A stretch of 64,000 nucleotides of DNA from Pseudomonadota bacterium (GCA_016202695.1 JACQOE010000029.1:61332-125331); one strand, 5' to 3'. Numbered from the stretch's first letter, positions 33,842 through 50,160 are shown. The notes: generated by a model from the letters alone, not told the origin. Made by a program: numbers and translations.

Positions 33842-34261
33842 TCAGGCGCCGCCCGGCCCTCGCCTCTCCTCGTCCCGACCGCCCCCCGAGTCGGCGGCCA
33901 GCATCTCCGCGACGCGGTGCCGGTACTGGAGCGCGACCAGCACCCCCTTGAACAGCCTGAGGAGCACGACCGCGAGTGCGAGGATGGCCGGCGGCCAGAC
34001 GATGGCGTGCAGCCACAAGGGCGGCTCGAAGGCGATCTCGATGCCGAACGCCAGCCCGACCGCGGCGACGCCGAGGAAGAAGATCACGAACACCGCCGGC
34101 CCGTCGCCAGCGTCGTGGTTGCGCAAGTCCAGCCCGCAGGCGCGGCAACGCTCGGCGACCGAGAGCAGGCCCGAGAAGAGCGGCCCGGCGGCGCAGCGCG
34201 GGCACCGACCCCTAAGGCCGGTGGCGATGGGGGACTGCGGCGGGTAGTACGCGTTGCCCAC
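33842..34261 (-). CDS. DUF983 zinc-ribbon membrane protein (cox-cluster associated)
   Basis: CPRC...CRAC Zn-ribbon N-terminus + 2 TM; conserved position between ctaE and surf1. Confidence 0.7.
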   Translation of the reverse strand: MGNAYYPPQSPIATGLRGRCPRCAAGPLFSGLLSVAERCRACGLDLRNHDAGDGPAVFVIFFLGVAAVGLAFGIEIAFEPPLWLHAIVWPPAILALAVVLLRLFKGVLVALQYRHRVAEMLAADSGGGRDEERRGPGGA

Positions 34262-34276
34262 GTCCTCGGCCGATCC

Positions 34277-35101: not shown

Positions 35102-35137
35102 GGATTTCGGTTCCTCTGATCAGCCTGCGGCCGGCCA

Positions 35138-35728
35138 TCACTCTCCGACGTGGGCGACCTCGTCGGACCGTCCGCCCAGAACGGGGACGTCGTCGAGCGA
35201 GCGGAAGAAGGTGTAGGAGAGGGTGATGGTGGACACGTCTCCGGTATCGGGGTCGGCGGCGATCGCCGGATCGACGAAGAAGCTCACCGGCATCTCGACC
35301 CGCTCGCCCGGCTTGAGCGTCTGCTCGGTGAAACAGAAGCACTGGATCTTGTTGAAGTACCGGCCGGCCTTGAGGGGGGTAACGTTGAAAGTCGAGATCC
35401 CGGTCACCGCTGCGTCCGCGTGGTTGACCGCCTCGTAGTAGACGAGCGCGGTCTCGCCCACGCGCAGGCGAACCTCCTTCTGCAGCGGCCGGAACGACCA
35501 CGAAAGCCTGGGATTGACATCGGCATTGAAGCGCACCGCGACGATCTTCTCTCCCGCCTGGGCCGGCACCGAGGCCGCGACCCGGGTGGCGCCGCCGAAG
35601 CCGGTCGCCCGGCAGAAAAGGTCGTAGAGCGGCACCGAGGCGAAGGCCAGACCGACCATGCCACCGACCACGGCCAGCAGACCCGCGAGCACGACCCGGT
35701 TGCGCCGGCGCAGCCGATCCGGGCTCAT
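35138..35728 (-). CDS. ctaG: Cytochrome c oxidase assembly protein CtaG/Cox11
   Basis: TM + ...YDLFCRATGFGG... Cox11 copper-chaperone motif. Confidence 0.9.
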   Translation of the reverse strand: MSPDRLRRRNRVVLAGLLAVVGGMVGLAFASVPLYDLFCRATGFGGATRVAASVPAQAGEKIVAVRFNADVNPRLSWSFRPLQKEVRLRVGETALVYYEAVNHADAAVTGISTFNVTPLKAGRYFNKIQCFCFTEQTLKPGERVEMPVSFFVDPAIAADPDTGDVSTITLSYTFFRSLDDVPVLGGRSDEVAHVGE

Positions 35729-35877
35729 CCGCCCCCCGTGATCTTGACGATGGTGACTAGGTAGAAGAGCACCGCGAGCCCGCCGAGCACCGCGAGGAGC
35801 GCGAGGTTGCGGCCGCGCACCCGACGCGCGCGCTCGTCCGTCGCGCCCGGCTCCCTCTCGATTCGCTCGCCGGCCAC
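35725..35877 (-). CDS. Unannotated 50-aa single-TM protein in ctaB-ctaG gap (GTG start)
   Basis: Manual translation VAGERIEREPGATDERARRVRGRNLALLAVLGGLAVLFYLVTIVKITGGG*; stop TGA overlaps ctaG ATG (ATGA); below the 60-aa track cutoff. Confidence 0.4.
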   Translation of the reverse strand: MAGERIEREPGATDERARRVRGRNLALLAVLGGLAVLFYLVTIVKITGGG

Positions 35878-35890
35878 GGCGCCCGCCCCC

Positions 35891-36820
35891 CTAGGCCCAG
35901 CCCAGGAGCGCCGCGGCGCGGTCCGCGATCAGCGCGCAGAAGATGAGGAAGAGATAGACGATCGAGAAGCCGAACATGCGCTTCGCACTCGCCACGCCCC
36001 GATCGCGGAAGACCGCGAGCGCGCGATAGAGGAACGTGGCGGAGAGCAAGACCGCGGAAACCCCATAGACCGGACCCGAAAGCCCGACCGCGAGCGGCGC
36101 CAACGAAATCGCCGCCACCACCGCACTGTAGAGCAGGATCTGGCGGCGCGTCTCGCGCTCGCCCGCGACGACCGGCAGCATCGGCACCCCGGCACGGGCG
36201 TAGTCGGCGCTGCGGTAGAGGGCGAGCGACCAGAAGTGGGGCGGAGTCCAGAAGAAAATGAGGGCGAACAGGATGAGGGCCTCGATCCCCACGTCGCCGG
36301 TCGCCGCCGCCCAGCCGATCACCGGCGGGAAGGCCCCGGCGGCGCCCCCGATGACGATGTTCTGCGGGGTGCGCCGCTTGAGCCAGACCGTGTAGACGAA
36401 CACGTAGAATGCGATCGAGAGCGCAAGCAGCGCCGCCGCCGCCAGCCCTACCACCAATCCCATCAGCAGCACCGAGCCGGCGGCGAGGGCGACCCCGAAG
36501 GACAGCGCCTCCTCGGGCCGCATGCGCCCCGCCGGGATGGGGCGAGCGCAGGTTCGCGTCATCACCGCGTCGATGTCGCGGTCGTACCACATGTTGATCG
36601 CCCCGGCCGCGCCGGCGCCGAGCGCGATGGCGAGCACGGCGACCGCCCCGATCAGCGGATTCGCCCCGCCGGGCGCGAGCAGGAGCCCGGCAAGGCCGGT
36701 GAACACGACCAGCGACATCACCCGCGGCTTGAGGATCGCGACGTAGTCGCGCGCCGAGGCGAGATCGACGACCGCTTGCGCCGCCGCCCGCGAACTGAGG
36801 TCACCTGCGCTCTCGGACAC
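35891..36820 (-). CDS. ctaB: Protoheme IX farnesyltransferase (heme O synthase)
   Basis: UbiA-family polyprenyltransferase motifs, 9 TM. Confidence 0.95.
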   Translation of the reverse strand: MSESAGDLSSRAAAQAVVDLASARDYVAILKPRVMSLVVFTGLAGLLLAPGGANPLIGAVAVLAIALGAGAAGAINMWYDRDIDAVMTRTCARPIPAGRMRPEEALSFGVALAAGSVLLMGLVVGLAAAALLALSIAFYVFVYTVWLKRRTPQNIVIGGAAGAFPPVIGWAAATGDVGIEALILFALIFFWTPPHFWSLALYRSADYARAGVPMLPVVAGERETRRQILLYSAVVAAISLAPLAVGLSGPVYGVSAVLLSATFLYRALAVFRDRGVASAKRMFGFSIVYLFLIFCALIADRAAALLGWA

Positions 36821-36872
36821 TCTTGTCGCTCCCTCTGCGCTTCTCCGCCGTTCCGCCGCGATCGGCGCACCC

Positions 36873-38537
<1,665 letters not shown>

Positions 38538-39386
38538 TCACTGGGTGGCCGTCGCCACCTCGACCGGCGCGCCGTCGGCGCGCGCGAACTTCTGCTTCGC
38601 CTCCGCCACCCACTTGGCGAAGTCCTCCTTCGACACGGCGTCGATGGCAACCGGCATGAAACCGTGGTTGACTCCGCACAGCTCGGAGCACTGGCCGAAA
38701 TAGGTGCCCGGCTTGGTGATCCGCGTCCAGGTCTCGTTCACCTTGCCGGGGATGGTGTCCATCTTCACCCCGAGCGCGGGGACCGCCCAGGAATGAAGCA
38801 CATCGGTGGAGGTGAAGAGGAGGCGGACGTTGGTGTCCACCGGCAGCACCACCCGATTATCGGTCTCCAGAAGCCGCCTCTGGCCCGGCTTGATTTCGGC
38901 GTCGGAGACCAAGTTGGCGTCAAACGTAAAGCCGCCATCATCGGAATACTCGTAGCTCCAGTACCATTGATGGCCGACGACCTTGAGCGTCATCTCGGCG
39001 TCGGCGGTGCGATCCTGGAAGTAAAGGAGGCGGAAGGAGGGGATGGCGATGATCACCAGGACGATCACCGGGACCACCGTCCACAGAACCTCGACGACGG
39101 TGTTGTGGGAGGTGCGCGAGGGAACCGGGTTGCGCGAGGCCCGGAAGCGGACGATCACGTAAAGAAGGAGGCCCAGCACGAGCACGCAGATGCCGATGAT
39201 GATCACCAGCAGCATGTCGTGGAACGCGACCAGCCGCTCCATCACCGGCGAGGCGGGGGGCTGGAAGTAGAGCTGCCAGGGCTCGGGCGCGGCCGCCAGG
39301 ACGCCAGACGCATGACCAAGGCCGAACGCGATCACCGCGCCCCGGACGAGGCGTGCCCCGAGTGCTCCGAGAACCATGCTCACCAT
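38538..39386 (-). CDS. ctaC: Cytochrome c oxidase subunit II
   Basis: Start at Met60 of track ORF after GAGAGGG RBS; CuA site HSWAVPALG...CSELCGVNHGFM. Confidence 0.9.
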   Translation of the reverse strand: MVSMVLGALGARLVRGAVIAFGLGHASGVLAAAPEPWQLYFQPPASPVMERLVAFHDMLLVIIIGICVLVLGLLLYVIVRFRASRNPVPSRTSHNTVVEVLWTVVPVIVLVIIAIPSFRLLYFQDRTADAEMTLKVVGHQWYWSYEYSDDGGFTFDANLVSDAEIKPGQRRLLETDNRVVLPVDTNVRLLFTSTDVLHSWAVPALGVKMDTIPGKVNETWTRITKPGTYFGQCSELCGVNHGFMPVAIDAVSKEDFAKWVAEAKQKFARADGAPVEVATATQ

Positions 39387-39682
39387 CCCTCTCAAGAGGA
39401 CCAAGCCCCTTTGGTGGAGGCACTTATCTAGCGGCCCCTCAACCGAGATGCAAAGCAAAAATCCAGGGATCGAGCTGCCCGCCGGCGGCGCCCCGCGACC
39501 CGGCGCCGGGGAGCAAAAATGGTGCCCGACCAGGGGCCTGCCCGCCTTCCTGGATGCCCTCAAAGGACCCGGTCGAGGGCTCGCCGGCCGCTAAGACGAT
39601 CCTCGACTGCCAGCCGGATCGGCGGTCGACCGAGGACGACGCCGGCCCAATACCGGGTGGCGCCCGCTGCCCCGCCGGAGCC

Positions 39683-41590
39683 TCAGCGCCGCTCCCGGCC
39701 CGCCCGAGGCGCCTTGGCCTTGATCGCCAGGTTCGTCTCCACGTAGTCGAGCAGGACGGCAAGCGACTGGGCCACGTCCTGGCTTCCGGTGTCGACCACG
39801 AGCTCGGGGCTCCCCGGTGGTTCGTAGGGCGCGGAGATGCCTGTGAAGTCGGGGATCTCGCCCCGGCGCGCCTTCTTGTAGAGGCCCTTGGGATCGCGTG
39901 CCTCGCAGGTGGCGAGGTCGGCCCGGACGTAAATCTCGTGGAAGAGGTCGGGGGCGATCGCGCGCACCCGGTCGCGATCCGAGCGGTAGGGCGAGATGAA
40001 GGCGGTGATCACCAGCATCCCCGCGCGGGCGAAAAGCGCCGCCACCTCGCCCACGCGGCGGATGTTCTCGGCCCGGTCGTCGGGGCTGAAGCCGAGGTCG
40101 GCCGAGAGCCCGTGGCGGATGTTGTCGCCGTCGAGCACGAACACCTGGTAGCCCTTGCGGAACAACCGCTGCTCGAGCTCGAGGGCGAGCGTGGTCTTTC
40201 CCGCGCCCGAGAGCCCGGTGAGCCAGAGGATGCCGCTCTTGTGGCCGTTGACCAGCGAGCGGCTCTCCTGCCCGACGCGGTGATCGACGCTGGTGATGTT
40301 GGTCGACTTCACCGTCAGCGCGTGGCGTTGGTCGGGGTAGCCGCGCATGTTGATGATGCCGCCGCCGACGATGTCGTCGTCGTCGAGGAGCACGACGCGC
40401 CCGGTGGCGGGGTTGGCGGTGAAGGGGTCGAGGACCACGGTCGAGCGCGCGCGCAGCACGACCTCGGCCACCCCGTTGCGCTCGACGACGCCGTCGCTGC
40501 GCGCCGAGAGGTCGGCGACGTCGATGACCGTCTCGACCTCCTGCACCTGTAGCTGCAGCTCGGCGGTGTTGAGCCTGGCCTTGTAGCGGTCGCCCGCGGC
40601 AAGCGGCCGGCGGCCCAGCCAGAAAAGGCGCGCGCGGAAGACGGTGCTGAGCACGGGGGCCGCCTCGAGGTGGCTGATCACCTCGCCGCGCTCGACGAAG
40701 ATCTGCTCATCGAGCGTGATCCCGATGCTCTGGCCCGTGGCCGCGGCGAGGACGGGCTGCGCCGCCCCCCAGGCCTCGATCGAGGAGACCCTGGCGGTCT
40801 TGTTGGAGGGCGAGAGGAGTACCGTGTCCCCCACCCTGAGCCGCCCCGACTCGATCCGCCCGGCGATGATCCGGCGTTGGTCGAATTTGTAGATGTCCTG
40901 GATGGGAAGTCGGAGCGGCAGATCGGTGGGGCGCGGCGCCGGCGCGAGCTGGTCGAGGGCCTGGACCAGCGTCATACCCTCGTACCAATCCATGGCACCG
41001 CCGGCGGCCCCGCGCCGGGCGACGTTGTCGCCGGTCTGGGCCGAGAGCGGAACGATATGGGTGGGGAGGATGCCAAGCTCGGCGAGACAGGCCCGCGCGT
41101 CGGCCGCAACATCGGCGAAGGCGGTGAAGGAAAAGTCGGCCAAGTCCATCTTGTTGACCGCCACCGCGACCTGACGGATGCCGAGGAGGTGGACGAGATA
41201 GGCGTGGCGGCGCGTCTGCTCCTGCATGCCCTCGGTCACATCGACGACGAGCAGGGCGGCATCCGCGGGCGCCGCCCCGGTGATCATGTTCCTGACGAAC
41301 TCGCGGTGGCCGGGGGTGTCGATGATGACCAAGGCGCGCCGCTCGGTGCACAGCCGGGTTTGGGTGGTGTCGATGCTGAGGCCCTGCTCGCGCTCGGCCT
41401 GGAGCGCGTCCAGGAGAAACGCCCACTCGAATGGCATTCCCCGGCGCCCGCACATCGCGCGCACCGCCTCGATACGACCCTCGGCAAGACCGCCAGTCTC
41501 CGCCAGCATCCGCCCGATCAGCGTCGACTTGCCGTGCTGCGCGTGGCCGACGACGACGACCTTGACCGTCTGTGGATCGTGCTCGGCCAT
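39683..41590 (-). CDS. cysNC: Bifunctional sulfate adenylyltransferase subunit 1 / adenylylsulfate kinase (CysN-CysC fusion)
   Basis: N-terminal GTPase GHAQHGKST...DTPGH...NKMD; C-terminal APS kinase GLSGAGKTT. Confidence 0.9.
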   Translation of the reverse strand: MAEHDPQTVKVVVVGHAQHGKSTLIGRMLAETGGLAEGRIEAVRAMCGRRGMPFEWAFLLDALQAEREQGLSIDTTQTRLCTERRALVIIDTPGHREFVRNMITGAAPADAALLVVDVTEGMQEQTRRHAYLVHLLGIRQVAVAVNKMDLADFSFTAFADVAADARACLAELGILPTHIVPLSAQTGDNVARRGAAGGAMDWYEGMTLVQALDQLAPAPRPTDLPLRLPIQDIYKFDQRRIIAGRIESGRLRVGDTVLLSPSNKTARVSSIEAWGAAQPVLAAATGQSIGITLDEQIFVERGEVISHLEAAPVLSTVFRARLFWLGRRPLAAGDRYKARLNTAELQLQVQEVETVIDVADLSARSDGVVERNGVAEVVLRARSTVVLDPFTANPATGRVVLLDDDDIVGGGIINMRGYPDQRHALTVKSTNITSVDHRVGQESRSLVNGHKSGILWLTGLSGAGKTTLALELEQRLFRKGYQVFVLDGDNIRHGLSADLGFSPDDRAENIRRVGEVAALFARAGMLVITAFISPYRSDRDRVRAIAPDLFHEIYVRADLATCEARDPKGLYKKARRGEIPDFTGISAPYEPPGSPELVVDTGSQDVAQSLAVLLDYVETNLAIKAKAPRAGRERR

Positions 41591-41629: not shown

Positions 41630-42424
41630 CTACATGTACCCGCCGCCGCGCAGCCGCTCGACGGCGTCCTCGGCCTCGTGGTCCATGGCGCGGCCCGCGC
41701 GCTCGGCGACACGGGTCGTCTCCAGCTCGGTGATGATCTCGTCCAGGCTCGCGGCGGTGCTGGCGATCGGGGTCGTGGCGTCGGAATCGCCGAGCGAGCG
41801 GTAGCGCCGGCCGGCGCGCGCGAAGTAGAGCTCGACCACGGGGATGCCCTCGCGCCGGATGTAGCGCCACACGTCGACCTCGCCCCAGTGCAGGAGCGGA
41901 TGGACGCGAAGGTGGGCCCCGGGCGCCACGCCGGTCTTGAACTGGTCCCAGAACTCGGGCGGCTGGTCGCGCGAGTCCCATCCGCCCCTGGCCCCGCGCG
42001 GGCTGAAGACGCGCTCCTTGGCCCGCGTCGGCTGCTCGTCGCGGCGAATTCCGGCGACGACTCCGACGAAGCCGTGGCGCTCGATCAGGCGCCTGAGACC
42101 CGCCGACTTGCGCGCCGCCAAGCGGGCGGCGGGAGGCAGCGTCGGGTCCATCTCCTCGACCGGCGGGCAGTCGCCGACGATCAGATCGAGCCCCCACTCC
42201 TTCGCATAGCGGTCGCGAAAGGGGCGCGTCTCGGGGAACTGCGTGCCGGTGTCGATGTGCAGCACCGGAAAGGGAACGTGCCCGAAGAACGCCTTGCGGG
42301 AGAGCCAGACGAGGACGGTGGAGTCCTTGCCCGACGACCACAGGAGGGCGATCGGCTTCAGCCGGCTGAAGGCCTCGCGCAGGACATAGACGCTCTGGCT
42401 CTCGAGGGCATCCAGGTGGTCCAT
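41630..42424 (-). CDS. cysD: Sulfate adenylyltransferase subunit 2
   Basis: Start at Met461 of track ORF (MDHLDALESQS...); PAPS-reductase-like SGKDS motif. Confidence 0.9.
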   Translation of the reverse strand: MDHLDALESQSVYVLREAFSRLKPIALLWSSGKDSTVLVWLSRKAFFGHVPFPVLHIDTGTQFPETRPFRDRYAKEWGLDLIVGDCPPVEEMDPTLPPAARLAARKSAGLRRLIERHGFVGVVAGIRRDEQPTRAKERVFSPRGARGGWDSRDQPPEFWDQFKTGVAPGAHLRVHPLLHWGEVDVWRYIRREGIPVVELYFARAGRRYRSLGDSDATTPIASTAASLDEIITELETTRVAERAGRAMDHEAEDAVERLRGGGYM

Positions 42425-42636
42425 GGGAATCTTCGAGACTCCTCGGGCTCGGTCCGGGCCGGAGAGGCGGCCGGGTGAGGCGCCCGGCCCTTGGGGACAG
42501 CACGAAACCACCCTGCACAAGGGATTGCAACCAAAACCGGTGTGGGAGCGGCGATCATCCTCGGCCGGGGCTGGGACGGGGTCGCGGGCGGCGGCCGCGC
42601 GACCCGCGGCGCGGGCCGGACGCCTCGCGAAACGGC

Positions 42637-43794
42637 TCAGATGGAGAGGCCAGGATCGAGCAGGCGGCCCTTCAGGCTGTCCTCGAAGGTCTGCAGCCGC
42701 ACGAACGACTTGATCTGATCGGCGATGCGGGCGTGATACTGGCGCCGTTGGTCGGGGTCGAAGAGGGTGGTCTCCGCGCTCTCGCGGTGGAAGTTGGCCG
42801 AGCGGAAGCCCACGTCGGCGGCGTGGACAAGGCGCTCGCGGGCGCCGCGCACCTTCCCCGACATCTCGGCCAACGCCAGCTCGGCGGTTGCGACGTCGGA
42901 CTCGGCGCTCGCCGCATTGGCCGCGGTGGTGAGGTCGGCGGTGCGGAGCCCGGCCGCGAGCACGCCGCTGAACGTGGGCTCGAGGTCGAGCGACACGGTG
43001 TCCTCGGCCGCCGCGTCGCGCCCGACCTGGACGTCGAAGCCGCGCGCGCTGATCGTGCCCGATACCGTGAGGTCGGCGGCATCGACCGCCGGGTCGATAT
43101 CGGTGCCGGGATCGAAGTTCTCGTTGATGGTGATGGTGAGGGCGAGGTCGCGAATGGGAACGGCGCGCGTCTGGCCCGCGGCCGGCGCCGTCGTCACCGC
43201 CTCGGAAACCGCCTGAACCCCGGTGGTGGTGTTGGTCACCGTGAACCGGTTGGTGGTGCTGCTGTAGGCCACCTCGAGCACATCGCCGTCGGCGAGGGCG
43301 CCGTTGGTGGGATTGGAGAAGGTGAAGCCGGCAAAGCCGTTCGCCGCCGAGAGGTCGGCCCCCACCGAGGTGGCGCTGAAGGAGGCGATCCCGGCAAGCA
43401 GGAACACCCTGTCTGCCTCGATGTTGGCCGCGGTTTCGTCGATCTGGGAACGGAGCGAGCGGAACTCCTGATCGAGGAGCGAGCGGTCGTAATCGGAGAG
43501 ATCGTCCTCGGCCGCCGACTGGGCCAAATCCTCGATCTGCCCGAGCAGCTCCTCGATCACGTCGAACCCTTCGATCGCCTTGGCCAGCGTGCCGTTGGCG
43601 TCGGCGCCGTTCTGCGCCCCCTGGGCGATGAGGACGCCGGCCGCGCTCAGCCGGTTGGCGAGGAGCCCGGTGACGGTGTTGAGGTCGCTGTTGCGGGCGT
43701 AGAACGGGTCGAACCGGCGCTCCGGCTCGAACGCCCGGTCGAAGGTGGCCGCGATCTGCGACTGGTTCAGCCTGAGGGATACGACATCGACCAT
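42637..43794 (-). CDS. Flagellin/FlgL-like protein (N-terminal flagellin helical domain), orphan
   Basis: ...IAQGAQNGADANGTLAKAIEGFDVIEELLGQIEDLAQSAAEDD...LLDQEFRSLRSQIDETAANIE... resembles flagellin D0/D1 N-terminal region; Thr/Ser/Asp-rich variable middle; start at Met41 (MVDVVSLRLNQ). Confidence 0.5.
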   Translation of the reverse strand: MVDVVSLRLNQSQIAATFDRAFEPERRFDPFYARNSDLNTVTGLLANRLSAAGVLIAQGAQNGADANGTLAKAIEGFDVIEELLGQIEDLAQSAAEDDLSDYDRSLLDQEFRSLRSQIDETAANIEADRVFLLAGIASFSATSVGADLSAANGFAGFTFSNPTNGALADGDVLEVAYSSTTNRFTVTNTTTGVQAVSEAVTTAPAAGQTRAVPIRDLALTITINENFDPGTDIDPAVDAADLTVSGTISARGFDVQVGRDAAAEDTVSLDLEPTFSGVLAAGLRTADLTTAANAASAESDVATAELALAEMSGKVRGARERLVHAADVGFRSANFHRESAETTLFDPDQRRQYHARIADQIKSFVRLQTFEDSLKGRLLDPGLSI

Positions 43795-43984
43795 GGTGAG
43801 CCACGTCTCACCCGGCACGTTCCCGTAAGGGCCTCGCCCCCACGGCGCATCCTGCTCGAAAGGCCGGTTCACGGCCCGCCCATCCTGGGAAGGCCGGATC
43901 GTCCTTGCGGACAATCTATCTCGCTCTCTTCACCTCTCCCACGCGAGGGGCCCCGCCCACCGGGATCCCCTGTAAAAACAGCTA

Positions 43985-44049: not shown

Positions 44050-44670
44050 TCAGCGCCCGCCGACCGGGGGCTTGCGGGTGAGGTCGGCCAAGAAGGCGCG
44101 GAAGATTCCGCCCACCGCCTGGCCGTAGGCGGCCACCGTCGCCGGGATGCCGGACTCGGCCGCCGGCCGCTCGGCCCGGTAGACCTGGATGACCTCGAGC
44201 CCGCGCTCGCCCCCCTGGCCGACGCCGAGCTCGAGCTCGACCAGGACCGAAGCGCCGGTCGCGCCGACGAGGCGCTCGAGGCGGCGGATCTTGCCGGTCA
44301 GCACATAGGGCGCGCCGGCGCGCTGCTCGGAGGTGATCACGGCGCGGGCAATGTTCGCCTGGCGGAGGAACGCCACCAACTCTTCCTGCAGGAGCCGCGA
44401 GGGGGGCTCGACCCAGTAATGGTAGTCGTAGCGGTCGAGCTCGAAGCTCGCCTCGCGCCGTGAGAAGAGGAGGGCCCGCTCGGCCAGGAGCCCGTCGGCG
44501 AGGAAGCGGCGCACCTCCAGGGCCCCGTCGAAGAGGGGGGCGGAGAGCGCCCGCTCGGGCGGCGCCACCTCCAGCCGGTAGTAGTGATCGCGCGGCACCG
44601 GGGCCGAGCCCCCGCATCCCCCGACCGGGAGCGCCAGGGCCAGGACGACAATGAGGCGCGCCGCCCTCAT
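44050..44670 (-). CDS. ABC-transporter auxiliary lipoprotein (PqiC/YmbA-like, DUF330)
   Basis: Lipobox LALPVGGC; DHYYRLE motif typical of PF03886; 4-nt overlap with MCE gene. Confidence 0.75.
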   Translation of the reverse strand: MRAARLIVVLALALPVGGCGGSAPVPRDHYYRLEVAPPERALSAPLFDGALEVRRFLADGLLAERALLFSRREASFELDRYDYHYWVEPPSRLLQEELVAFLRQANIARAVITSEQRAGAPYVLTGKIRRLERLVGATGASVLVELELGVGQGGERGLEVIQVYRAERPAAESGIPATVAAYGQAVGGIFRAFLADLTRKPPVGGR

Positions 44671-45725
44671 GGCCCTCCTCCTCCCCCCGGTGCCGACTCC
44701 GACGCGCCCTCCAGCTTCGTTCCCTGCAGCAGCACGCTTGGGTTGCTGCGGATCTGGCGACTGAACTCGTAGACGTTGCGGCTGGCCCCTTCCAGGTTGT
44801 TGGCGATGGCGTCGATCCGGCCAGCGAGCGACTCGAGCACATGGCGCATGTCGCCCATCGAGGCGCCCACCGCTCCGGCGTTCTCGTCGGCGATCCGGTT
44901 GAGCGAGGCGATGAGCTTGCCGAGATCATCCAGGCTCGCGCGCATATCCTCGATGAGGTGGCCGAAGCCCTCGGAGGAGGTCTGCATGTTCCCGATCACC
45001 CCCTCGATCCGGGCCATGTTCTCCGCGGAGAGAAGCTCGTTGAGGCGCGCGCTCGATCGGTTGAGGGTGGAGAGGAAGCCCTTGAGGTCGCGGGAAACCG
45101 CGGGCGAGGACTCGGCGAGGTCGGAGACGATGCGCCGGAGGTTGTCGGTGACATCGACCACCGCCGGCTCGACCACGGTCCCGACCCCGTCGACCATCGC
45201 GGTGATGCGCTCGACGAGCGGCTTGATGCGGTTGCGCGAGAGGTCGGTCACCTCCTCGGCGACCGAGGTCATGAGCGCGAGCATGTCGCCGCCCGGCTCG
45301 CTGGCGATCCGCGCCCCGCGCTCGAGGTAGGTGCCGCTCCGGCCGCCGCGGATGTCGATGACCAGGGCGGAGAGGAGCCCCGGGGCCGAGATGCGGGCGA
45401 TACTGTCGGCGGGAACCTGCCAGCCCGAGATCACGCTCGCCTCGACCCGGAAGCGGAGCTTGCCATCCTCGGTGATCGGCTCGATGTGCTCGATCTGGCC
45501 GACCGGGAACCCCTCGTAGAGAACCTGCGAGCCGAACTTGAGGCCGGCGACGTTGTCGAAGACGATTGAGTAGCGGTCGGTGGTGCCGGCCCGGCCGGTC
45601 AATACGGCAAGCACCACCACGAATACCGCCAGCATGACGAGCACGACGCTGCCGACGACGATATAGTTGATGCGGCTGCTGCGCATGGCGCGGCCGAGCG
45701 CCCCCTTCCCGCCCTGCTCCTGCAC
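44667..45725 (-). CDS. MCE-family substrate-binding protein (MlaD-like) with extended C-terminal helical region
   Basis: N-terminal TM + MCE domain (YSIVFDNVAGLKFGSQVLYEGFPVGQIEHIE); GTG start sharing 1 nt with MlaF stop. Confidence 0.85.
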   Translation of the reverse strand: MQEQGGKGALGRAMRSSRINYIVVGSVVLVMLAVFVVVLAVLTGRAGTTDRYSIVFDNVAGLKFGSQVLYEGFPVGQIEHIEPITEDGKLRFRVEASVISGWQVPADSIARISAPGLLSALVIDIRGGRSGTYLERGARIASEPGGDMLALMTSVAEEVTDLSRNRIKPLVERITAMVDGVGTVVEPAVVDVTDNLRRIVSDLAESSPAVSRDLKGFLSTLNRSSARLNELLSAENMARIEGVIGNMQTSSEGFGHLIEDMRASLDDLGKLIASLNRIADENAGAVGASMGDMRHVLESLAGRIDAIANNLEGASRNVYEFSRQIRSNPSVLLQGTKLEGASESAPGGGGGP

Positions 45726-46546
45726 TACCCCTCGCCGGTCAGTCGGCGGAGGTAGGCATCGGCGTCGAGTGTAGCCTCCTCCGAGCGCCGGTTCAGCAGA
45801 TTCTGGATGCGCGGATTGGGACTCGCGCGCACCTCCTCGACGCTGCCCACCATCAGGATCTCGCCCCGGTCGAGCACGATCAGGCGATCGGCGATCTTCA
45901 AGGCGCTCTCGAGCTCGTGGGTGACCACGACGATGGTGATGCCGAGGGCGTCGCGGAGCTTGAGGATCAGGTCGTCGAGCTCGGCCGCCACTATTGGGTC
46001 GAGGCCCGCCGAGGGCTCGTCGCAGAAGAGGAGCTTGGGGTCCATGATGATCGCCCGAGCGAAAGCCGCGCGCTTGGTCATGCCGCCCGAGAGCTCGGAG
46101 GGCATCAGGCCCTCGAAGCCGGCGAGCCCGACCACCTCGAGCTTCATGCGGGCCATGATCCGCATGGTGCGCTCGTCGAGGTCGGTGTGCTCGCGCAGGG
46201 CCAGCATGATGTTCTCGCCGACGGTCATCGAGCTGAAGAGCGCACCGCCCTGGAAGGCCACCCCCATGTGTTTGCGCAGTTCCGCGAGTTCCGGTCCCTT
46301 GAGGCGGCCAAGATCGCGCCCGAGCACCTTGACCGTGCCCGCGTCCGGCGTCTCGAGGGCGATGAGCTGGCGCAGGAGCGTGCTCTTGCCCGAGCCGCTG
46401 CCGCCCATGATGACCATGATCTCGCCGTCGTAGATGTCGAAGCTCACCCCTTTCAGGATGGTGCGCTCGCCGTAGCGCACCACCACGTTCTCGACCTCGA
46501 TCACCCTCGGCCGGCCCTCGGCCACGGCGAGCGGAAGGGCACCCAT
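45725..46546 (-). CDS. ABC transporter ATP-binding protein (MlaF-like)
   Basis: Start at internal Met (MGALPLAVAEG...), Walker A GGSGSGKST, signature LSGGM, Walker B LLFCDEP. Confidence 0.9.
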   Translation of the reverse strand: MGALPLAVAEGRPRVIEVENVVVRYGERTILKGVSFDIYDGEIMVIMGGSGSGKSTLLRQLIALETPDAGTVKVLGRDLGRLKGPELAELRKHMGVAFQGGALFSSMTVGENIMLALREHTDLDERTMRIMARMKLEVVGLAGFEGLMPSELSGGMTKRAAFARAIIMDPKLLFCDEPSAGLDPIVAAELDDLILKLRDALGITIVVVTHELESALKIADRLIVLDRGEILMVGSVEEVRASPNPRIQNLLNRRSEEATLDADAYLRRLTGEG

Positions 46547-47346
46547 CAGCGGCTCACGACGAAGGCGAAGATCATGTCGGTGATGACGATCGCGCTGATC
46601 CCGTGTACGACCGAGCGGGTGGTGGCGCGGCCCACGCCTTCGGCGCCGCCGCGCACCGAGGCCCCGTTGACCGCACCGACCAGGGTGATGAGGACGGCGA
46701 AGATCAGGCTCTTGCCGAGCCCGTGGAAGAGATCGTCGGTGGTGATCGAGTCGATGCAGGCATCGGTGTACGCCGCGAGCGACATACCCAGCTCGATCGC
46801 GACGTAGAGCCCGCCGCCAAGAATGGCGACGAGGTCGGCGTAGAAGGTGAGCACCGGCAGCATCACCACCATGGCGAGGAGCGCCGGCGCGACCAGGAAG
46901 CGCACTGGGTTGACCGCCATCGTGGTGAGAGCGTCGATTTCCTGGTTGATGGTCATGGTCCCGAGCCGGGCGGCGATCGCCGACCCCGAGCGCCCCGTCA
47001 CCAGGATGCCGGTGATGAGGGGCGCGAACTCGCGGGTGACCGAGAGCGCAATGCCCAGAGTCACCCGGTCCTCGGCCCCGAAAATCCTGAGGGTGTAGAT
47101 GCCCTGGATCGCGAGCATGACGCCGATGGTGAGCGAGAGCACGGTGACGATGGGAAGCGCGAGGATGCCGATCTCCATCATCTGCACGAAGACGGAGCCG
47201 ACGCGCACCGGCTGGCGCCGGCGCCTGCCCATCAGCGTCCAATAAAGACTCTCGGCGAAGAGCGCGCCGGCGAAGCCGAGGTCGGCAAGCCCGCGCGCGG
47301 TCGCCCGCCCGACCTGCTCGGCGACATCGGCAAGCGGCCGCAGCAC
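46546..47346 (-). CDS. ABC transporter permease (MlaE-like)
   Basis: MlaE/Ttg2B family pattern (...QMMEIGILALPIV...EIDAL...). Confidence 0.9.
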   Translation of the reverse strand: MLRPLADVAEQVGRATARGLADLGFAGALFAESLYWTLMGRRRRQPVRVGSVFVQMMEIGILALPIVTVLSLTIGVMLAIQGIYTLRIFGAEDRVTLGIALSVTREFAPLITGILVTGRSGSAIAARLGTMTINQEIDALTTMAVNPVRFLVAPALLAMVVMLPVLTFYADLVAILGGGLYVAIELGMSLAAYTDACIDSITTDDLFHGLGKSLIFAVLITLVGAVNGASVRGGAEGVGRATTRSVVHGISAIVITDMIFAFVVSR

Positions 47347-47350
47347 CCGC

Positions 47351-47683
47351 TCAGCCGCCGCTGGCGAGCGCCTCGGCGACGCTCGCGTGAATCGCGAAGA
47401 CCTTGTCGAGGCGCGCCAGGCTCAGGACCCGCATGGCGGCGGGACTCACCGCCGCGAGCGCCAAGCGCCGGCCCCTGAGCCGCGCCGCCTGAAGCGCCTC
47501 GACCAGGCTGGCGATGCCGGAGGAGTCGATGTAGGTGATCCGAGCCATGTCGACGAGCACGTCGCGGCCGCGTCCGACCGCCTTCAGCAGCACCTCTCGC
47601 GCCTCGGGCGAGCTGTCGAGGTCGACGTCGCCCTCGAGCGTAACCACGAGCGTGGCGCCGTCCTCGCGGAGCTGGTGTTTCAT
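47351..47683 (-). CDS. STAS-domain protein (anti-sigma-factor antagonist fold; MlaB position) with phosphorylatable DSSG motif
   Basis: 110 aa; ...ARITYIDSSGIASLVEA... = conserved SpoIIAA/RsbV phospho-Ser loop; 4 nt upstream of MlaE start, overlaps kinase stop. Confidence 0.85.
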   Translation of the reverse strand: MKHQLREDGATLVVTLEGDVDLDSSPEAREVLLKAVGRGRDVLVDMARITYIDSSGIASLVEALQAARLRGRRLALAAVSPAAMRVLSLARLDKVFAIHASVAEALASGG

Positions 47684-48183
47684 GGCCTCTCCCCCTCGGC
47701 CTTTCCCGCCGCCGCCCCGGTCGGTGCGATCCTTTTGACCATGCGCAGCAGGTTGCCACCGCCGGCGGGGCGCGGCAGGAAGGCGACCTCGTCCATCACC
47801 TCTCGGATCAGATGCGTGCCAAGCCCTCCCGGCCTCAGCTCGTCGAGGTCGCGGGGCCTGACCCGGCGCTCGTCCACCGGCGGGGCGAAGTCGCGGAGCT
47901 CCACCGCCACCCGATCGCCCTCCCGTCGCATCGTCAGCACAATCTCGCCGTCGGGCCGCCCCGAATAGGCGTGGCGGATGACGTTCTGACAGGCCTCGTC
48001 GACCGCGAGCACGATGTCATGGACCGCGTCCTCGCTGCAACCGGTCGAGCGCACCGCCGCCGCCACCGCGGCACGGACCATCTTCAGCCGGTCGGGAAGG
48101 GAGCGGAAGCGAAGCTCGAACAGCGTCTCGGCCGCGGCGCCCTCCGCTAGCGAAGGCTCGGCCCGGGTGGGGTTGGCCGCCAC
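47680..48183 (-). CDS. RsbW/SpoIIAB-like serine protein kinase (HATPase_c anti-sigma regulatory factor fold)
   Basis: GTG start (codon 62 of track ORF) after GAGGGG RBS, 12 nt after phosphatase stop; VHDIVLAVDEACQNVIRHAY N-box; G-boxes LRDFAPP...GGLGTHLI. Confidence 0.75.
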   Translation of the reverse strand: MAANPTRAEPSLAEGAAAETLFELRFRSLPDRLKMVRAAVAAAVRSTGCSEDAVHDIVLAVDEACQNVIRHAYSGRPDGEIVLTMRREGDRVAVELRDFAPPVDERRVRPRDLDELRPGGLGTHLIREVMDEVAFLPRPAGGGNLLRMVKRIAPTGAAAGKAEGERP

Positions 48184-48194
48184 GCCCGCGCCCC

Positions 48195-49481
48195 TCAGGC
48201 TCCGTCCACGGCGACCAGGGTGAGGTCGTCGTGGATCTCGCCGCCCGCGGGGCAGAGACGGTCGACGACGATTCTGAGGAGTTCCGGAGAGGTGAAGCGC
48301 CCCGCAAGCTCGGCGATCATCGCCGTCAGCCCCTCTGCCCCCAGGCGCCCGCCGCCCGGCAGCCAAGCCTCGGTGACGCCGTCGCTGAAGACGTAGAGGG
48401 TGCCGCCTCCCAGCTCCAGCTCGCTCACCGGGGGGCCGGTCTCGGGAATCAGGTTGGCGGCGATGCCGAGCGGCGGCACGCTCGCCGGAAGGGCGGTGAA
48501 GCGGCCCCCGCGGGCGCGGAAGAGTGGCGGCTCATGGCCGGCATTGGCCAGGCGCACCCGGCGGCGCGAGGGATCGAGCACGCCGCAGACCATGGTGACG
48601 AACATCCCTCGCGTCACTGTCTCGCAGATCTCGGCGTTGACTCGGGCGATCAGTCGGCCGGGATCGTGGACCTCCTTGCCGAGGCAGCGAAAGACGCTCG
48701 CGGTCTTGGCCATGAGGAGCGCGGCGTTCATGCCCTTGCCGGAGACGTCGCCGAGGGCGAAGCAGACGCTGCCGTCGGCGAGCGGGAAGAAGTCGTAGAA
48801 GTCGCCGGAGACGCACCGCGCCGGCTGGTTGGCGCCGCAAACGGGAAAGGGAACCGGACGGGGAGCGGGAAGAAGGTTCCTCTGGATCTCGGCGGCCAGC
48901 TCCAGCTCGCGGCGCATGCGCTGCTGCTCGACCAGCTCGGCCGACATCTGCGCGTTCATCACCGCCAGCGCCGCGGCCGAGGCGAGCGCCTGAACGAGGT
49001 GGCGGTCGCGCTCGTCGAAAAGCCCGCCGCCGCGCTTGTTGATCAGCTCGATCGCGCCCAGGCAGAGGTCGCCGTGGCCCAAGGGCGCGCACAGGATCGA
49101 GCGGGTGGTGAAGCCGGTGAGCTTGTCGACCGCCTTGCCGAACTGCGGATCCTTCGACACGTCGCGGACCATCTGCGTCTCGAGCTCGCGGATCGAGCGT
49201 CCGACGATGCCGCCGTCGGCGGGGAGCCTGAGCCCGGTGATGTCGACCGGGCCGAAGCAGGCCCGGCAGACCACCGCCGTGCCGTCCTCATCGAGAAGGA
49301 AGAGCGAGGAGGCCTCGGCGCTCACCTGATCGGCGATTCGCTTCAGACCGCGCCGGAGGGTCGCCTCGACGTCGAGGGTCCGGGCGAAGTCGTGGATGAG
49401 GTCGGCGAGGAGGTGCAGACATTCGAACACCTCCTCGGCCGCCGCGGAATGCGCGCTTGCCGCCCGGTTGCTCGCCGACAT
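48195..49481 (-). CDS. GAF-domain PP2C/SpoIIE-type serine phosphatase (RsbU/RsbP-like)
   Basis: N-terminal GAF (…LFLLDEDGTAVVCRACFGP…ILCAPL…); C-terminal PP2C (…SGDFYDFF…GDVSGKG…DDLTLVAV). Confidence 0.85.
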   Translation of the reverse strand: MSASNRAASAHSAAAEEVFECLHLLADLIHDFARTLDVEATLRRGLKRIADQVSAEASSLFLLDEDGTAVVCRACFGPVDITGLRLPADGGIVGRSIRELETQMVRDVSKDPQFGKAVDKLTGFTTRSILCAPLGHGDLCLGAIELINKRGGGLFDERDRHLVQALASAAALAVMNAQMSAELVEQQRMRRELELAAEIQRNLLPAPRPVPFPVCGANQPARCVSGDFYDFFPLADGSVCFALGDVSGKGMNAALLMAKTASVFRCLGKEVHDPGRLIARVNAEICETVTRGMFVTMVCGVLDPSRRRVRLANAGHEPPLFRARGGRFTALPASVPPLGIAANLIPETGPPVSELELGGGTLYVFSDGVTEAWLPGGGRLGAEGLTAMIAELAGRFTSPELLRIVVDRLCPAGGEIHDDLTLVAVDGA

Positions 49482-49566: not shown

Positions 49567-49929
49567 CTACTCGCCTTCGATCTCGCGCTCCTCGGCGACG
49601 TGATCGACCATGTCGGTGAGCACGGCGCGGATGTGCTCGTCGGCGACCAGGTAGAACACCTGGCGCCCCTGGCGCTGCGCCTGCAGCAGCCGCGCCGCGC
49701 GCAGGAGCCGGAGGTGGTGGCTGACCAGCGACGGCGAGAGCTTGAGCTTGCTCGCCATCTCGCCCACCGAGACCTGCTGATGGAGGCAGGTGAGGATGAT
49801 GCCCAGCCGGGTGGGATCGCTCATCAGCCGGAAGACCTCGGCCAGTTCGACGACCTCGTCCTCGCCCAGCCGCGGCCCGGTCACCGTCGGCGAGGCGGGG
49901 TTCTTCAACACGGGAACGCCCTTCGGCAC
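49567..49929 (-). CDS. ArsR/SmtB-family metalloregulatory transcriptional repressor
   Basis: wHTH ...AEVFRLMSDPTRLGIILTCLHQQVSVGEMASKLKLSPSLVSHHLRLLRAARLL... Confidence 0.85.
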   Translation of the reverse strand: MPKGVPVLKNPASPTVTGPRLGEDEVVELAEVFRLMSDPTRLGIILTCLHQQVSVGEMASKLKLSPSLVSHHLRLLRAARLLQAQRQGRQVFYLVADEHIRAVLTDMVDHVAEEREIEGE

Positions 49930-50097
49930 CGCGATAGTCCTTAAAGTCCAATCCTTTGGCCGCGCATCCTAGCCCTCGCCCGGCGCCGCCGCAACCCGGG
50001 ACGCGCATGATTCGGGCCTTGAAATCGAGCCCGATTTGGATAATAAAAAGGATCGAAAAACGGGAAAATCAAAAGTAACCGGAAATACTTCTATTCC

Positions 50098-50160
50098 TGT
50101 TCATCTGTAAATTTGAACATCAATGCAAACATGTATGCTGTTCATCTGTACATATGAACA
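50098..50160. promoter_or_regulatory. Two 22-bp palindromic operators TGTTCA-N10-TGAACA (50098-50119 and 50139-50160) in ArsR/MCO divergent region
   Basis: TGTTCATCTGTAAATTTGAACA and TGTTCATCTGTACATATGAACA, centres 41 bp apart, inside an AT-rich 250-bp intergenic region. Confidence 0.5.

Follow-up and report, generated by a model that had tools for sequence, protein, structure and literature searches.

The seven-gene cassette on the minus strand from 49481 down to 44050 lies within a 64,000-nt sequence from a Pseudomonadota bacterium (GCA_016202695.1 JACQOE010000029.1:61332-125331), the whole of which is referred to here as the window. Translation and a Pfam scan show that every ORF in the cassette is intact and closely spaced with its neighbours, and the domains given here for all seven are above the Pfam gathering thresholds. 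At the 5' end is a 428 aa GAF-PP2C serine phosphatase of the SpoIIE/RsbU-type PPM family (48195–49481; Pfam SpoIIE 1.2e-40, GAF 1.4e-13), followed by a 167 aa RsbW/SpoIIAB-like serine kinase with a GTG start (47680–48183; HATPase_c_2 1.2e-30) and a free STAS protein of 110 aa (47351–47683; STAS 1.2e-19). The remaining genes encode a 266 aa MlaE-family ABC permease of the short form (46546–47346; Pfam MlaE 1.9e-67, and above the cut-off for TIGR00056), a 273 aa MlaF-like ABC ATPase (45725–46546; ABC_tran, with MlaF as its best NCBIfam match), a 352 aa MCE protein (44667–45725; Pfam MlaD 1.5e-11 over residues 50–127), and a 206 aa PqiC/MpcA-like outer-membrane lipoprotein (44050–44670; ABC_trans_aux 7.3e-11). 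An alternative start for the MCE protein is present at an ATG at 45686.

Read from the sequence, the junctions from phosphatase to lipoprotein are an 11-nt gap, then -4, +4, -1, -1, and -4 nt. An earlier note on this sequence had described seven co-directional, closely packed minus-strand genes with these domains, which held when the ORFs were checked against Pfam and NCBIfam, as did its intergenic distances, except that the first gap had been given as 12 nt. It had also named a terminator separating STAS from mlaE as evidence that would count against it. A sequence search found no terminator-like site between the cassette genes; the only two consensus matches are both within coding sequence, and this number does not exceed that given by shuffles. 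The identical 167 aa kinase is recorded on four other contigs, which means that the division between phosphatase and kinase is not an error of this window. No sigma-70 family domain is present in the approximately 40 window ORFs scanned with Pfam, the scan leaving out stretches at about 2.7–5.1, 6.9–10.2, 24.3–25.6, 30.3–31.5, and 55.5–57.3 kb.

The SpoIIE match of the phosphatase covers positions 2–189 of 192 in the domain, and the criterion for the PPM/PP2C family, possession of the metal-binding Asp motifs, is met, these being present in 75 (GDxxD), 80 (GDVxGKG), and 78 (DGxxE) of 81 orthologues. At E-values of about 2e-20 to 3e-16, the GAF part is closest to the cyclic-nucleotide-binding GAF domains of PDE5, PDE2, and a cyanobacterial adenylate cyclase. 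The phosphatase is proposed to be the sensor and activator arm of the module, and a cyclic nucleotide is a possible ligand, although the ligand is inferred only. For the kinase, the top PDB match of the family profile is B. subtilis RsbW (2.3e-19). This is a minimal protein, with a core of about 140 aa, that has the N, G1, and G2 boxes of the HATPase_c_2 serine kinases; across 27 relatives there is no variation in the N-box residues E63, N67, and H71, in D98, or in G119-G120-x-G122, and the one minor deviation is a G1 box that reads D-F-A and not D-x-G. The possibility raised in the earlier note, that either enzyme might prove to be a frameshifted pseudogene, is not borne out by this sequence, in which both genes are intact. 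The catalytic motifs of both are conserved.

The predicted phospho-acceptor of the STAS protein is Ser54 (codon 47522–47524), which aligns to the phospho-Ser of SpoIIAA and TM1442. It lies within the motif D53-S54-S55-G56, which meets the D-S-x-G criterion at the start of helix alpha-2. All 78 orthologues examined have Y51, D53, S54, and S55, and at least 90% of them have G56. The STAS protein had been described as occupying the MlaB position beside mlaE, and this held; Ser54 also aligns to Thr52 of MlaB (hhalign probability 93.8%). Orthology to MlaB itself was considered and rejected, the sequence class being that of RsbV/SpoIIAA. The protein scores 71 bits against the NCBIfam anti-sigma-factor antagonist model (cut-off 53) and its profile matches TM1442 (2.3e-23) and RsbV (2.3e-14), whereas the MlaB equivalog NF033618 gives 21.7 bits against a cut-off of 90, PDB MlaB is matched at 7e-3 by single sequence and 1.7e-4 by profile, and the STAS domains of fused MlaE proteins score a median of 23 bits. 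This STAS is thus far nearer to the anti-sigma antagonists than to MlaB or to the fused domains, which would leave open the possibility that a classical partner has been retained.

The top PDB matches of the MlaF-like ATPase are the MlaF proteins of A. baumannii, E. coli, and P. aeruginosa (1.8e-58 to 1.9e-52), and it bears the LSGGM signature (aligned as 'lsggm' to A. baumannii MlaF). It ends in a conserved tail, D-x-D-A-Y265-L-R-R-L269-T, the motif Y-[LM]-x-x-L being found in 68 of 70 orthologues. The tail is similar to the C-terminal extension of E. coli MlaF that contacts MlaB. A Veillonella system without MlaB also has an MlaF C-terminal extension, so the tail cannot be taken as specific evidence. 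The MCE protein has an N-terminal membrane anchor, a single MCE domain, and a long helical C-terminal region resembling the needles of MpcD and PqiB; it reaches 52.7 bits against TIGR04430 MlaD, where the cut-off is 135, and has an actinobacterial MCE family as its best NCBIfam match, while its orthologues range from about 300 to 846 aa. The lipoprotein has a signal peptide and lipobox, V-G-G-C19, as read from the translation. MlaC and MlaA domains are missing from the operon, as they are from the other window ORFs that were scanned, a search that does not extend to the rest of the genome.

Relatives of the kinase were found in approximately 570 matching stretches in species-representative genomes, from which the best 80 loci were analysed. 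These range in GC content from 39 to 71% and are mostly from Rhodospirillales, with some from Gammaproteobacteria, Myxococcota, and Marinimicrobia. The complete transporter gene set is present, in order, at 60 of the 63 loci that have enough sequence, the GAF-PP2C phosphatase at 72 of 75, and the PqiC-like lipoprotein is the final gene in at least 58. The flanking gene families are variable and unrelated, and the recurrence of this order between unrelated flanks shows an arrangement that is far beyond chance. The expectation that the linkage would be kept in other genomes, which a neighbourhood survey was to decide, is therefore met. Nor is there a recurrent sigma-70 family gene among the 67 upstream and 58 downstream neighbours of these loci, and the claim that no sigma factor is nearby held both here and in the scanned window ORFs. 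No alternative conserved candidate for the output of the module was seen at the related loci.

There are differences between the loci in how the module is arranged. Phosphatase and kinase are a single fused protein in 53 and are separate in 26, and four loci have no phosphatase. Fusion on this scale fits a bifunctional protein that sets the phosphorylation state of the STAS better than it fits a diffusible anti-sigma factor. One locus (L034) retains the phosphatase-kinase fusion, the STAS, and the MlaF-like ATPase in the absence of MlaE and MCE genes, and another (L057) has the fusion and the STAS with no transporter. The first of these counts in favour of the gated-subunit reading set out below; L057, the four loci without a phosphatase, and the deviant G1 box of the kinase count against it. 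PAS-GGDEF genes are immediately upstream in three loci (L001, L047, L005), and GGDEF proteins make up 6 of the 67 upstream neighbours.

In the window, MlaE has no N-terminal STAS and the STAS has a gene of its own, 4 nt upstream of mlaE, while at least 75 of the 150 closest MlaE clusters (at 50% identity) are STAS-MlaE fusions. These sister-group fusions are Rosetta-stone evidence, and give independent support to the STAS being a subunit of the transporter. The sampling of gene contexts is restricted to two of the fused type and five distant ones of the short type. Neither fused locus (L086, L088) has a kinase or a phosphatase. The full module is present in four of the five distant short-MlaE contexts (L091–L094), where MlaE identity has fallen to 39–44%, and the fifth (L095) has, of the module, only a free STAS beside the transporter, without a kinase.

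It is suggested, with rather more in favour than against, that the free STAS is an MlaB-equivalent subunit and that whether it can bind MlaF is controlled by phosphorylation at Ser54. The transporter would span the envelope: MlaE2F2 would form its inner-membrane part, the MCE protein a hexameric needle, and the PqiC-like lipoprotein its outer-membrane end. The cytoplasmic STAS would correspond to MlaB in E. coli and to the STAS domain at the N-terminus of Brucella MpcE, freed and placed under a dedicated phosphorylation cycle. Unphosphorylated STAS would sit on MlaF at its helical subdomain, where the C-terminal tail of the ATPase would also dock, and would support ATPase engagement such that transport is on. 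The RsbW-like kinase would take the same helical face of the STAS and phosphorylate Ser54, preventing the binding of MlaF and turning transport off, until a ligand, possibly a cyclic nucleotide, is sensed by the GAF domain of the phosphatase, which then strips the phosphate. The STAS would in this way swap between kinase and transporter instead of between kinase and sigma factor. The switching of MlaFE-MCE by STAS phosphorylation, as the earlier note proposed, is supported, and is refined by the Mpc type of the transporter, the RsbV/SpoIIAA class of the STAS, and the mostly fused phosphatase and kinase of the orthologues. There being no biochemical data for any member, it is inferred that the STAS is phosphorylated and that it binds MlaF, and so are the way the switch works, what the GAF domain senses, and which lipid is carried.

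A bolder reading, which could as easily fail as stand, is that envelope-spanning lipid ABC transporters of one widespread class are gated post-translationally by a true partner switch, in which a free MlaB-like STAS would shuttle between the ATPase and a dedicated kinase. A GAF-sensor phosphatase, in many cases joined to the kinase and perhaps reading a cyclic nucleotide, would determine the phosphorylation state of this STAS. If true, an ABC transporter would for the first time have been shown to be what a partner-switching module controls, and the phospho-regulation that has been hypothesised for E. coli MlaB would have its natural counterpart here.

It might instead be that this is classical partner switching, in which the kinase or the STAS acts on a target whose gene is elsewhere in the genome, such as a sigma factor or a diguanylate cyclase, and the transporter genes are merely co-transcribed, perhaps within a single envelope-stress regulon. 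In favour of this are the typical RsbV and RsbW sequences of the STAS and kinase, the module without a transporter in L057, and the PAS-GGDEF genes upstream at three loci, given that STAS proteins controlling diguanylate cyclases or glycosyltransferases are known. It is nonetheless unlikely: sigma-70 family genes are lacking from the scanned window ORFs and do not recur in the flanks, the transporter is kept where no other candidate output is conserved, the sister transporters carry the STAS as one of their own domains, and a kinase tethered to a phosphatase in two thirds of loci would be an awkward sequestering factor.

A literal transfer of the RsbW/RsbV logic would have the HATPase_c_2 protein itself block MlaF, or MlaE, with unphosphorylated STAS acting not as a transporter subunit but as an antagonist that draws the kinase away. 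The conservation of the operon fits this equally well, and the short MlaE has no STAS of its own. It too is considered improbable, since the sister group attaches the STAS covalently to the transporter, the STAS protein is the MlaF binder in E. coli, the kinase is minimal and usually tethered to the phosphatase, and L095 has a free STAS and transporter with no kinase. That same locus, and the fact that phosphorylation of E. coli MlaB has never been demonstrated, could be taken to indicate that the STAS is a permanent subunit and that the enzymes read the state of the transporter or modify the STAS without gating. This is the least likely of the alternatives; the invariant acceptor motif, the conserved catalytic residues, and the GAF sensor argue for a cycle running from input to STAS, and the module contains no further output domain that could receive a signal.

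The gated-subunit reading can be set against what is known of related systems. The Bacillus RsbU-RsbV-RsbW and SpoIIE-SpoIIAA-SpoIIAB modules share with this cassette a PPM phosphatase, a HATPase_c_2 kinase, and a STAS with the D-S-S-G acceptor, and the fused multidomain protein Rv1364c of M. tuberculosis, present among the PDB matches, parallels the phosphatase-kinase fusions of the related loci. Here, however, there is a GAF sensor, no sigma factor is found in or near the operon or recurring at related loci, and the conserved partner genes are those of an ABC lipid transporter. The partner-switching criterion of a sigma factor or other defined kinase-sequestered protein, usually co-encoded, is unfulfilled in the scanned window ORFs and among recurrent flanking families. 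Sigma-less modules of a similar kind include the Anabaena STAS/phosphatase HenR pair (acting on a glycosyltransferase), Vibrio SypE/SypA, and Rhodobacter capsulatus Rba, which have the same phospho-STAS logic with a non-sigma output. No ABC transporter or lipid-transport output was found for these in the literature, and, as the earlier note had supposed, no prior description of a kinase, phosphatase, and STAS joined to MlaFE-MCE was found in the literature searched.

With E. coli MlaFEDB there are in common the MlaE and MlaF homologues (MlaF E about 1e-52), the LSGGM signature that is an MlaF feature, a tail with a Y-x-x-x-L motif, and a co-encoded free STAS protein, which in E. coli is MlaB and binds MlaF (PMC7367683). 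The MlaB residue aligned to Ser54, Thr52, is central to the MlaF-MlaB interface, and binding is weakened by a T52E change; phospho-regulation of MlaB has been put forward as a hypothesis only, without demonstrated phosphorylation (PMC7367683), and was never tied to an enzyme. In contrast to this cassette, MlaB of E. coli lacks a kinase and a phosphatase of its own. An identity as an E. coli-type Mla system was rejected, given that the MCE protein is long where E. coli MlaD is a short 183 aa, that the operon lacks MlaC and MlaA, and that the STAS fails the MlaB model.

By gene order and architecture, the transporter belongs with the Mpc (Mla-Pqi chimeric) systems, its MCE protein being needle-like and its lipoprotein resembling PqiC. 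In Brucella abortus the system is encoded as MpcE-MpcF-MpcD-MpcA, where the STAS is fused to the N-terminus of MpcE, MpcD is 331 aa, and MpcE belongs to a stable MpcEFDA complex (PMC12436622). The two systems are compared here by their architecture and through metagenomic STAS-MlaE fusions (38–49% MlaE identity), and not directly against the Brucella sequences. The four transporter genes are in matching order, with an MlaE-type permease, an MlaF-type ATPase, an MCE protein of approximately 330–350 aa with a helical needle, and the PqiC-like lipoprotein last, and each system has a STAS element that goes with its permease and ATPase. The Mpc criterion of gene order, from permease through ATPase and long MCE needle to PqiC-like lipoprotein, is thus met (60/63 loci), while that of a STAS-permease fusion is not. 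Where the Brucella STAS is part of MpcE, with no kinase or phosphatase reported, the cassette described here has a separate 110 aa STAS encoded directly after both enzymes.

The cassette consists of seven genes on the minus strand: a GAF and SpoIIE/PP2C phosphatase (48195-49481, 428 aa; Pfam SpoIIE 1.2e-40), an HATPase_c_2 kinase with a GTG start (47680-48183, 167 aa; Pfam 1.2e-30), a STAS protein (47351-47683, 110 aa; Pfam 1.2e-19), an MlaE permease (46546-47346, 266 aa; Pfam 1.9e-67), an ABC ATPase with MlaF as its top NCBIfam match (45725-46546, 273 aa; ABC_tran 2.7e-31), an MCE protein (44667-45725, 352 aa; MlaD 1.5e-11), and an ABC_trans_aux lipoprotein (44050-44670, 206 aa; Pfam 7.3e-11). 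All seven ORFs are intact and the Pfam thresholds are exceeded for every named domain, which upholds the seven-gene operon that the earlier note had proposed from the sequence alone, although the first intergenic gap is 11 nt and not the 12 nt claimed there. The remaining junctions are, in order, -4, +4, -1, -1, and -4 nt, with an alternative ATG start for the MCE gene at 45686. There is no promoter-like site within the cassette in a consensus scan, and the only two terminator-like matches both lie within coding sequence and are no more numerous than in shuffled sequences.

Relatives of the kinase form 812 clusters (E <= 1e-5) in a metagenomic protein collection, mostly 55-67% identical, and scanning a single genome from each species gave 599 pattern matches, 570 of which were confirmed as relatives; the locus counts presented here rest on the best 80 of these 570. 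The closest genome match to the window kinase, at 64-66% identity, is in a Rhodospirillales MAG, and the best 80 loci are mainly from the Rhodospirillales. Cultured carriers include Paramagnetospirillum caucaseum SO-1, P. kuznetsovii LBB-42, Terasakiella pusilla DSM 6293, and Telmatospirillum sp. J64-1, with the cassette also present in MAGs labelled Dongia, Ferrovibrio, and Phaeospirillum and in others labelled Gammaproteobacteria, Myxococcota/Deltaproteobacteria, and Marinimicrobia.

When gene order was mapped by tblastn with all seven window proteins, the STAS, MlaE, MlaF, MCE, and lipoprotein genes were found in order in 60 of the 63 loci that have at least 4.3 kb beyond the kinase, and the GAF-PP2C was found in 72 of the 75 with sufficient upstream sequence. 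Adjacent genes are separated by a median of -4 to +9 nt, and the loci span 39% to 71% GC. Independent metagenome contigs, assessed from called genes and Pfam labels, carry the same cassette between differing flanks. The nearest upstream genes are mixed (n=67; PhaC 10, GGDEF 6, glycosyltransferases 5, EAL 4), as are those downstream (n=58; tRNA methyltransferase 8), and no sigma factor recurs among these 67 upstream and 58 downstream neighbours. No plasmid copies were found by tblastn of the kinase against a plasmid collection. The fact that the gene order is kept while the nearest flanks vary demonstrates that the cassette is an autonomous, selected unit.

By sequence, the window STAS protein is a member of the RsbV/SpoIIAA class and is not an MlaB. 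Its NCBIfam score against the anti-sigma-antagonist model is 71 bits, above the cut-off of 53, but against the MlaB equivalog it reaches only 21.7 of the 90 bits required. Its profile matches in the PDB are TM1442 (2.3e-23), RsbV (2.3e-14), and SpoIIAA (3.9e-12), against merely 1.7e-4 to 5e-3 for the MlaB proteins of E. coli, P. aeruginosa, and A. baumannii. The predicted phospho-acceptor, Ser54, lies in a D-S-S-G motif and falls opposite the serine that is phosphorylated in SpoIIAA and TM1442. Across 78 distinct orthologues Y51, D53, S54, S55, A58, L60, and E62 are invariant, with G56 conserved in at least 90%. In a profile comparison with E. coli MlaB (93.8% probability) D53-S54 is paired with D51-T52; the MlaB sequence used agrees in length and in the position of Thr52 with the PDB chain and the paper. 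In E. coli, the MlaF-MlaB interface is centred on Thr52, and T52E weakens binding (Kolich et al. 2020, PMC7367683). The same authors left open how "active" MlaB is regulated, with phosphorylation of Thr52 an intriguing but untested possibility for which there is no known kinase.

The catalytic residues of the two putative regulators are well conserved. In the kinase family the N-box (E63, N67, H71), the adenine-binding Asp98, and the G2 box G119-G120-x-G122 are all invariant, the G1 box being D-F-A as against D-x-G, which is a small deviation. The kinase profile matches B. subtilis RsbW best (2.3e-19), followed by SpoIIAB, mycobacterial RsbW, and Rv1364c. Among 81 phosphatase orthologues, GDxxD is present in 75, GDVxGKG in 80, and DGxxE in 78. 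From the conserved acceptor and catalytic motifs the phosphorylation cycle looks functional, the phosphorylation itself being inferred.

One ORF encodes both the GAF-PP2C and the kinase in 53 related loci, and the two are separate, as in the window, in 26; the fused GAF-SpoIIE-HATPase_c_2 architecture was confirmed by Pfam in two loci, L057 and L094. That the split in the window is a frameshift pseudogene is ruled out by the 26 likewise split loci and by an identical 167-aa kinase on record from four other contigs. Neither of two outcomes that the earlier note would have taken as refutation applies: the split is judged to be natural, and absence of the linkage from other genomes is clearly excluded by the order kept in 60 of 63 loci.

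Two reduced variants of the cassette were seen. Locus L034 (7690-10689) has a GAF-PP2C-kinase fusion, STAS, and an MlaF-like ATPase without MlaE, MCE, or lipoprotein, and the C-terminal tail of this ATPase is intact. In locus L057 (7699-9912) the fusion and STAS are followed directly by an APS kinase, without the transporter.

The best matches of the phosphatase's GAF domain (2.4e-20 to 3e-16) are to GAFs that bind cyclic nucleotides, those of PDE5, PDE2, and a cyanobacterial adenylate cyclase. N148, F155, and D159 are invariant in the orthologues, with the spacing of the NKFDE motif. Given this similarity and these invariant residues, a cyclic nucleotide is a reasonable candidate ligand, an inference made without binding data. 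Adenylate/guanylate cyclase domains (3/58) and CHASE2 domains (2/58) occur among the nearest downstream neighbours of loci L006-L085; these are worth noting because of the resemblance of this GAF to cyclic-nucleotide-binding GAFs, but the numbers are too small to conclude from.

The closest structural relatives of the window ATPase are the MlaF proteins of A. baumannii, E. coli, and P. aeruginosa, and its signature motif is LSGGM, as is typical for ATPases of the Mla/TGD type. The tail D-P-[DE]-x-Y-L-x-R-L-T at its C-terminus is shared by 68 of 70 orthologues (counted as Y-[LM]-x-x-L). E. coli MlaF has a C-terminal extension of about 25 aa ending in a short helix, from which Tyr261, Leu265, and Leu266 are inserted at the MlaF-MlaB interface (PMC7367683). 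In the window ATPase, Tyr265 and Leu269 match E. coli both in the spacing from Y to L and in how far they lie from the C-terminus, the E. coli sequence used for this alignment being consistent with the numbering of the paper.

The window MlaE was searched exhaustively with HMMER against 1.84 billion cluster representatives, and the closest 150 clusters were examined. Of these, 93 are long proteins of 340-418 aa in which the MlaE domain begins at about residue 100-170, and Pfam identified STAS in all 10 of the long proteins first tested and in 75 of the 93 overall, so STAS is a covalent part of the permease in this sister group of the window MlaE. In two such loci (L086, L088) the fused STAS-MlaE is followed by the ABC gene with no kinase or phosphatase nearby; an MCE protein and lipoprotein come next in L086, and the L088 contig ends one unannotated gene beyond the ABC gene. 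Loci with a short MlaE of 39-44% identity (L091, L092/L093, L094) have the full module with kinase and phosphatase, while L095 has a short MlaE and a free STAS with Thr as acceptor but neither enzyme, an MlaB-like state. The acceptor is Ser in 78/78 cassette STAS proteins, whereas in the fused domains it is Ser or Thr in 64 of the 87 that align there (94 examined). In this small sample of contexts the kinase and phosphatase were seen only where STAS is a free protein, which matches the prediction of the shuttle (partner-switch) model. A neighbour-joining tree of MlaE domains mostly segregates short and long forms (nearest-neighbour agreement 35/44 and 89/93, respectively) and leaves monophyly of the cassette clade unresolved. 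One database protein, P0129, appeared to be a STAS-MlaE fusion inside the cassette clade, but is treated as an artefact because its contig has 2x coverage and is frameshifted throughout.

The model that we favour, with moderate confidence, is that the free STAS protein acts on MlaF and is gated by phosphorylation of Ser54. STAS would be the equivalent of MlaB and of the STAS domain of MpcE, the Brucella Mpc permease. Unphosphorylated, it would sit on the helical subdomain of MlaF and support engagement of the ATPase; the kinase, binding the same helical face of STAS, would phosphorylate Ser54 and so take STAS off MlaF, and the GAF-PP2C, on binding its ligand, would undo this phosphorylation. 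It is inferred in this model that STAS is phosphorylated and that it contacts MlaF, and the direction of the switch and the identity of ligand and substrate are likewise inferences. The frequent fusion of phosphatase and kinase, and the retention in L034 of the fusion, STAS, and a tail-bearing ATPase without MlaE or MCE, fit an output in which the phosphorylation state of STAS acts on the ATPase.

It is unlikely that this is a classical switch with its target, a sigma factor or a diguanylate cyclase, encoded elsewhere. The RsbV/RsbW-like sequences of STAS and kinase, the transporter-less L057, and the PAS-GGDEF genes upstream of some cassettes would favour this, but no alternative output is conserved and STAS is fused to the permease in relatives. 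Less probable again, although it cannot be dismissed, is that the kinase inhibits the transporter with STAS as the kinase antagonist; elsewhere it is STAS and not the kinase that is attached to these transporters, and L095 has no kinase. Reverse signalling, or a STAS that is a constitutive subunit, is the most doubtful explanation, being hard to square with the conserved catalytic residues and the sensor domain. Gating of MlaF by STAS remains the preferred reading.

In the window, the cassette has chromosomal housekeeping and metal-homeostasis genes as neighbours: an ArsR/SmtB regulator immediately upstream (49567-49929), a divergent multicopper oxidase and an Nramp transporter, a flagellin-N-like ORF, cysD, and cysNC downstream, and farther off glycine cleavage, ATP synthase F0, and SMC genes. 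No sigma-70 family domain was found in the approximately 40 window ORFs scanned, a few stretches being outside the scan. Neither the ArsR regulator nor the flagellin-like ORF is a conserved extra member of the operon, as there are no cassette-adjacent counterparts in other loci. The latter, at 42637-43914 (-), separates the cassette from cysD and encodes 425 aa. Its only domain match, to Flagellin_N, is weak (2.4e-6), and none of the 85 related loci searched has a homologue; a divergent protein of flagellin-like or coiled-coil type is possible. The AT-richer intergenic region between the divergent ArsR/SmtB regulator and multicopper oxidase genes contains TACAGATGAACAG in two exact copies (50097-50109 and 50138-50150) spaced 41 nt apart, against a chance expectation of 0. 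They are possibly a metalloregulator operator and are unrelated to the cassette.

Close to the cassette, the window also has a cytochrome c oxidase operon (31529-39590 (-); COX2, COX1, CtaB, CtaG, COX3, DUF983, SURF1), with an M32 carboxypeptidase after SURF1 in the same stop-to-stop frame, and another is directly upstream of the cassette in a different Rhodospirillaceae lineage (L002-L004, 502-4452), which amounts to loose synteny. On the same strand as the cassette and about 2.4 kb downstream are cysD (~41630-42530) and a cysN/cysC fusion (39683-41590). An APS kinase (CysC-like) gene follows the last cassette gene on the same strand at 1-16 nt in four loci (L015, L019, L022, L035) and at 128 nt in L010, and lies 1.5-3.9 kb from the cassette in four more; either lineage synteny or some connection with sulfate activation might explain this. 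In the 10 of 67 loci (L006-L085) with PhaC nearest upstream, the gene is a PHB synthase (PhaC_N and Abhydrolase_1). A PAS-GGDEF gene is directly upstream of the cassette in L001 (5224-6615), L047 (4760-6175), and L005 (8-133), and takes the position of the GAF-PP2C in the gammaproteobacterial variants, which lack it; EAL or GGDEF genes are near the cassette in other loci. Beyond the first three loci, these arrangements were noted at L055 (3808-5628) and L026 (35-952). A connection to c-di-GMP is conceivable from this gene neighbourhood.

Every part of the cassette is of a known kind, including the partner-switching trio, its sigma-less variants, MlaB-type STAS subunits, and the Mpc transporter. 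It is their assembly that is well conserved and that bears directly on the stated question of MlaB regulation. The earlier note knew of no description of the architecture, and none was found within the open-access full text searched, subscription-only literature being outside its scope. No paper there pairs RsbW with MlaF, the nearest literature being papers on MlaFB, Mla structure, and Brucella Mpc and a STAS review. The review of STAS-only proteins does not mention Mla or ABC transporters, and there are no kinases in the MlaB/STAS sections of a phylogenomic Mla survey or in the STAS and Mpc sections of the Brucella paper (PMC12436622). The cassette provides a natural system in which a STAS in the MlaB position, with an invariant acceptor serine, is co-encoded with its own kinase and phosphatase, and its presence in hundreds of species, some of them cultured, makes the hypothesis directly testable. 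If true, partner switching would gain a membrane transporter as a new class of output, and rapid post-translational control would be added to the poorly understood MCE lipid-trafficking systems, a Brucella relative of which is needed for survival in macrophages (PMC12436622).

Unlike E. coli Mla, the window operon has a long MCE protein (352 aa; orthologues approximately 300-846 aa) and a PqiC-family lipoprotein as its final gene, and has no MlaC or MlaA. The Brucella Mpc is composed of MpcE, MpcF, the needle-like MpcD of 331 aa, and the PqiC-like MpcA, which form a stable complex required for deoxycholate resistance and early macrophage survival, and its MpcE permease has an N-terminal STAS domain "homologous to MlaB" (PMC12436622).
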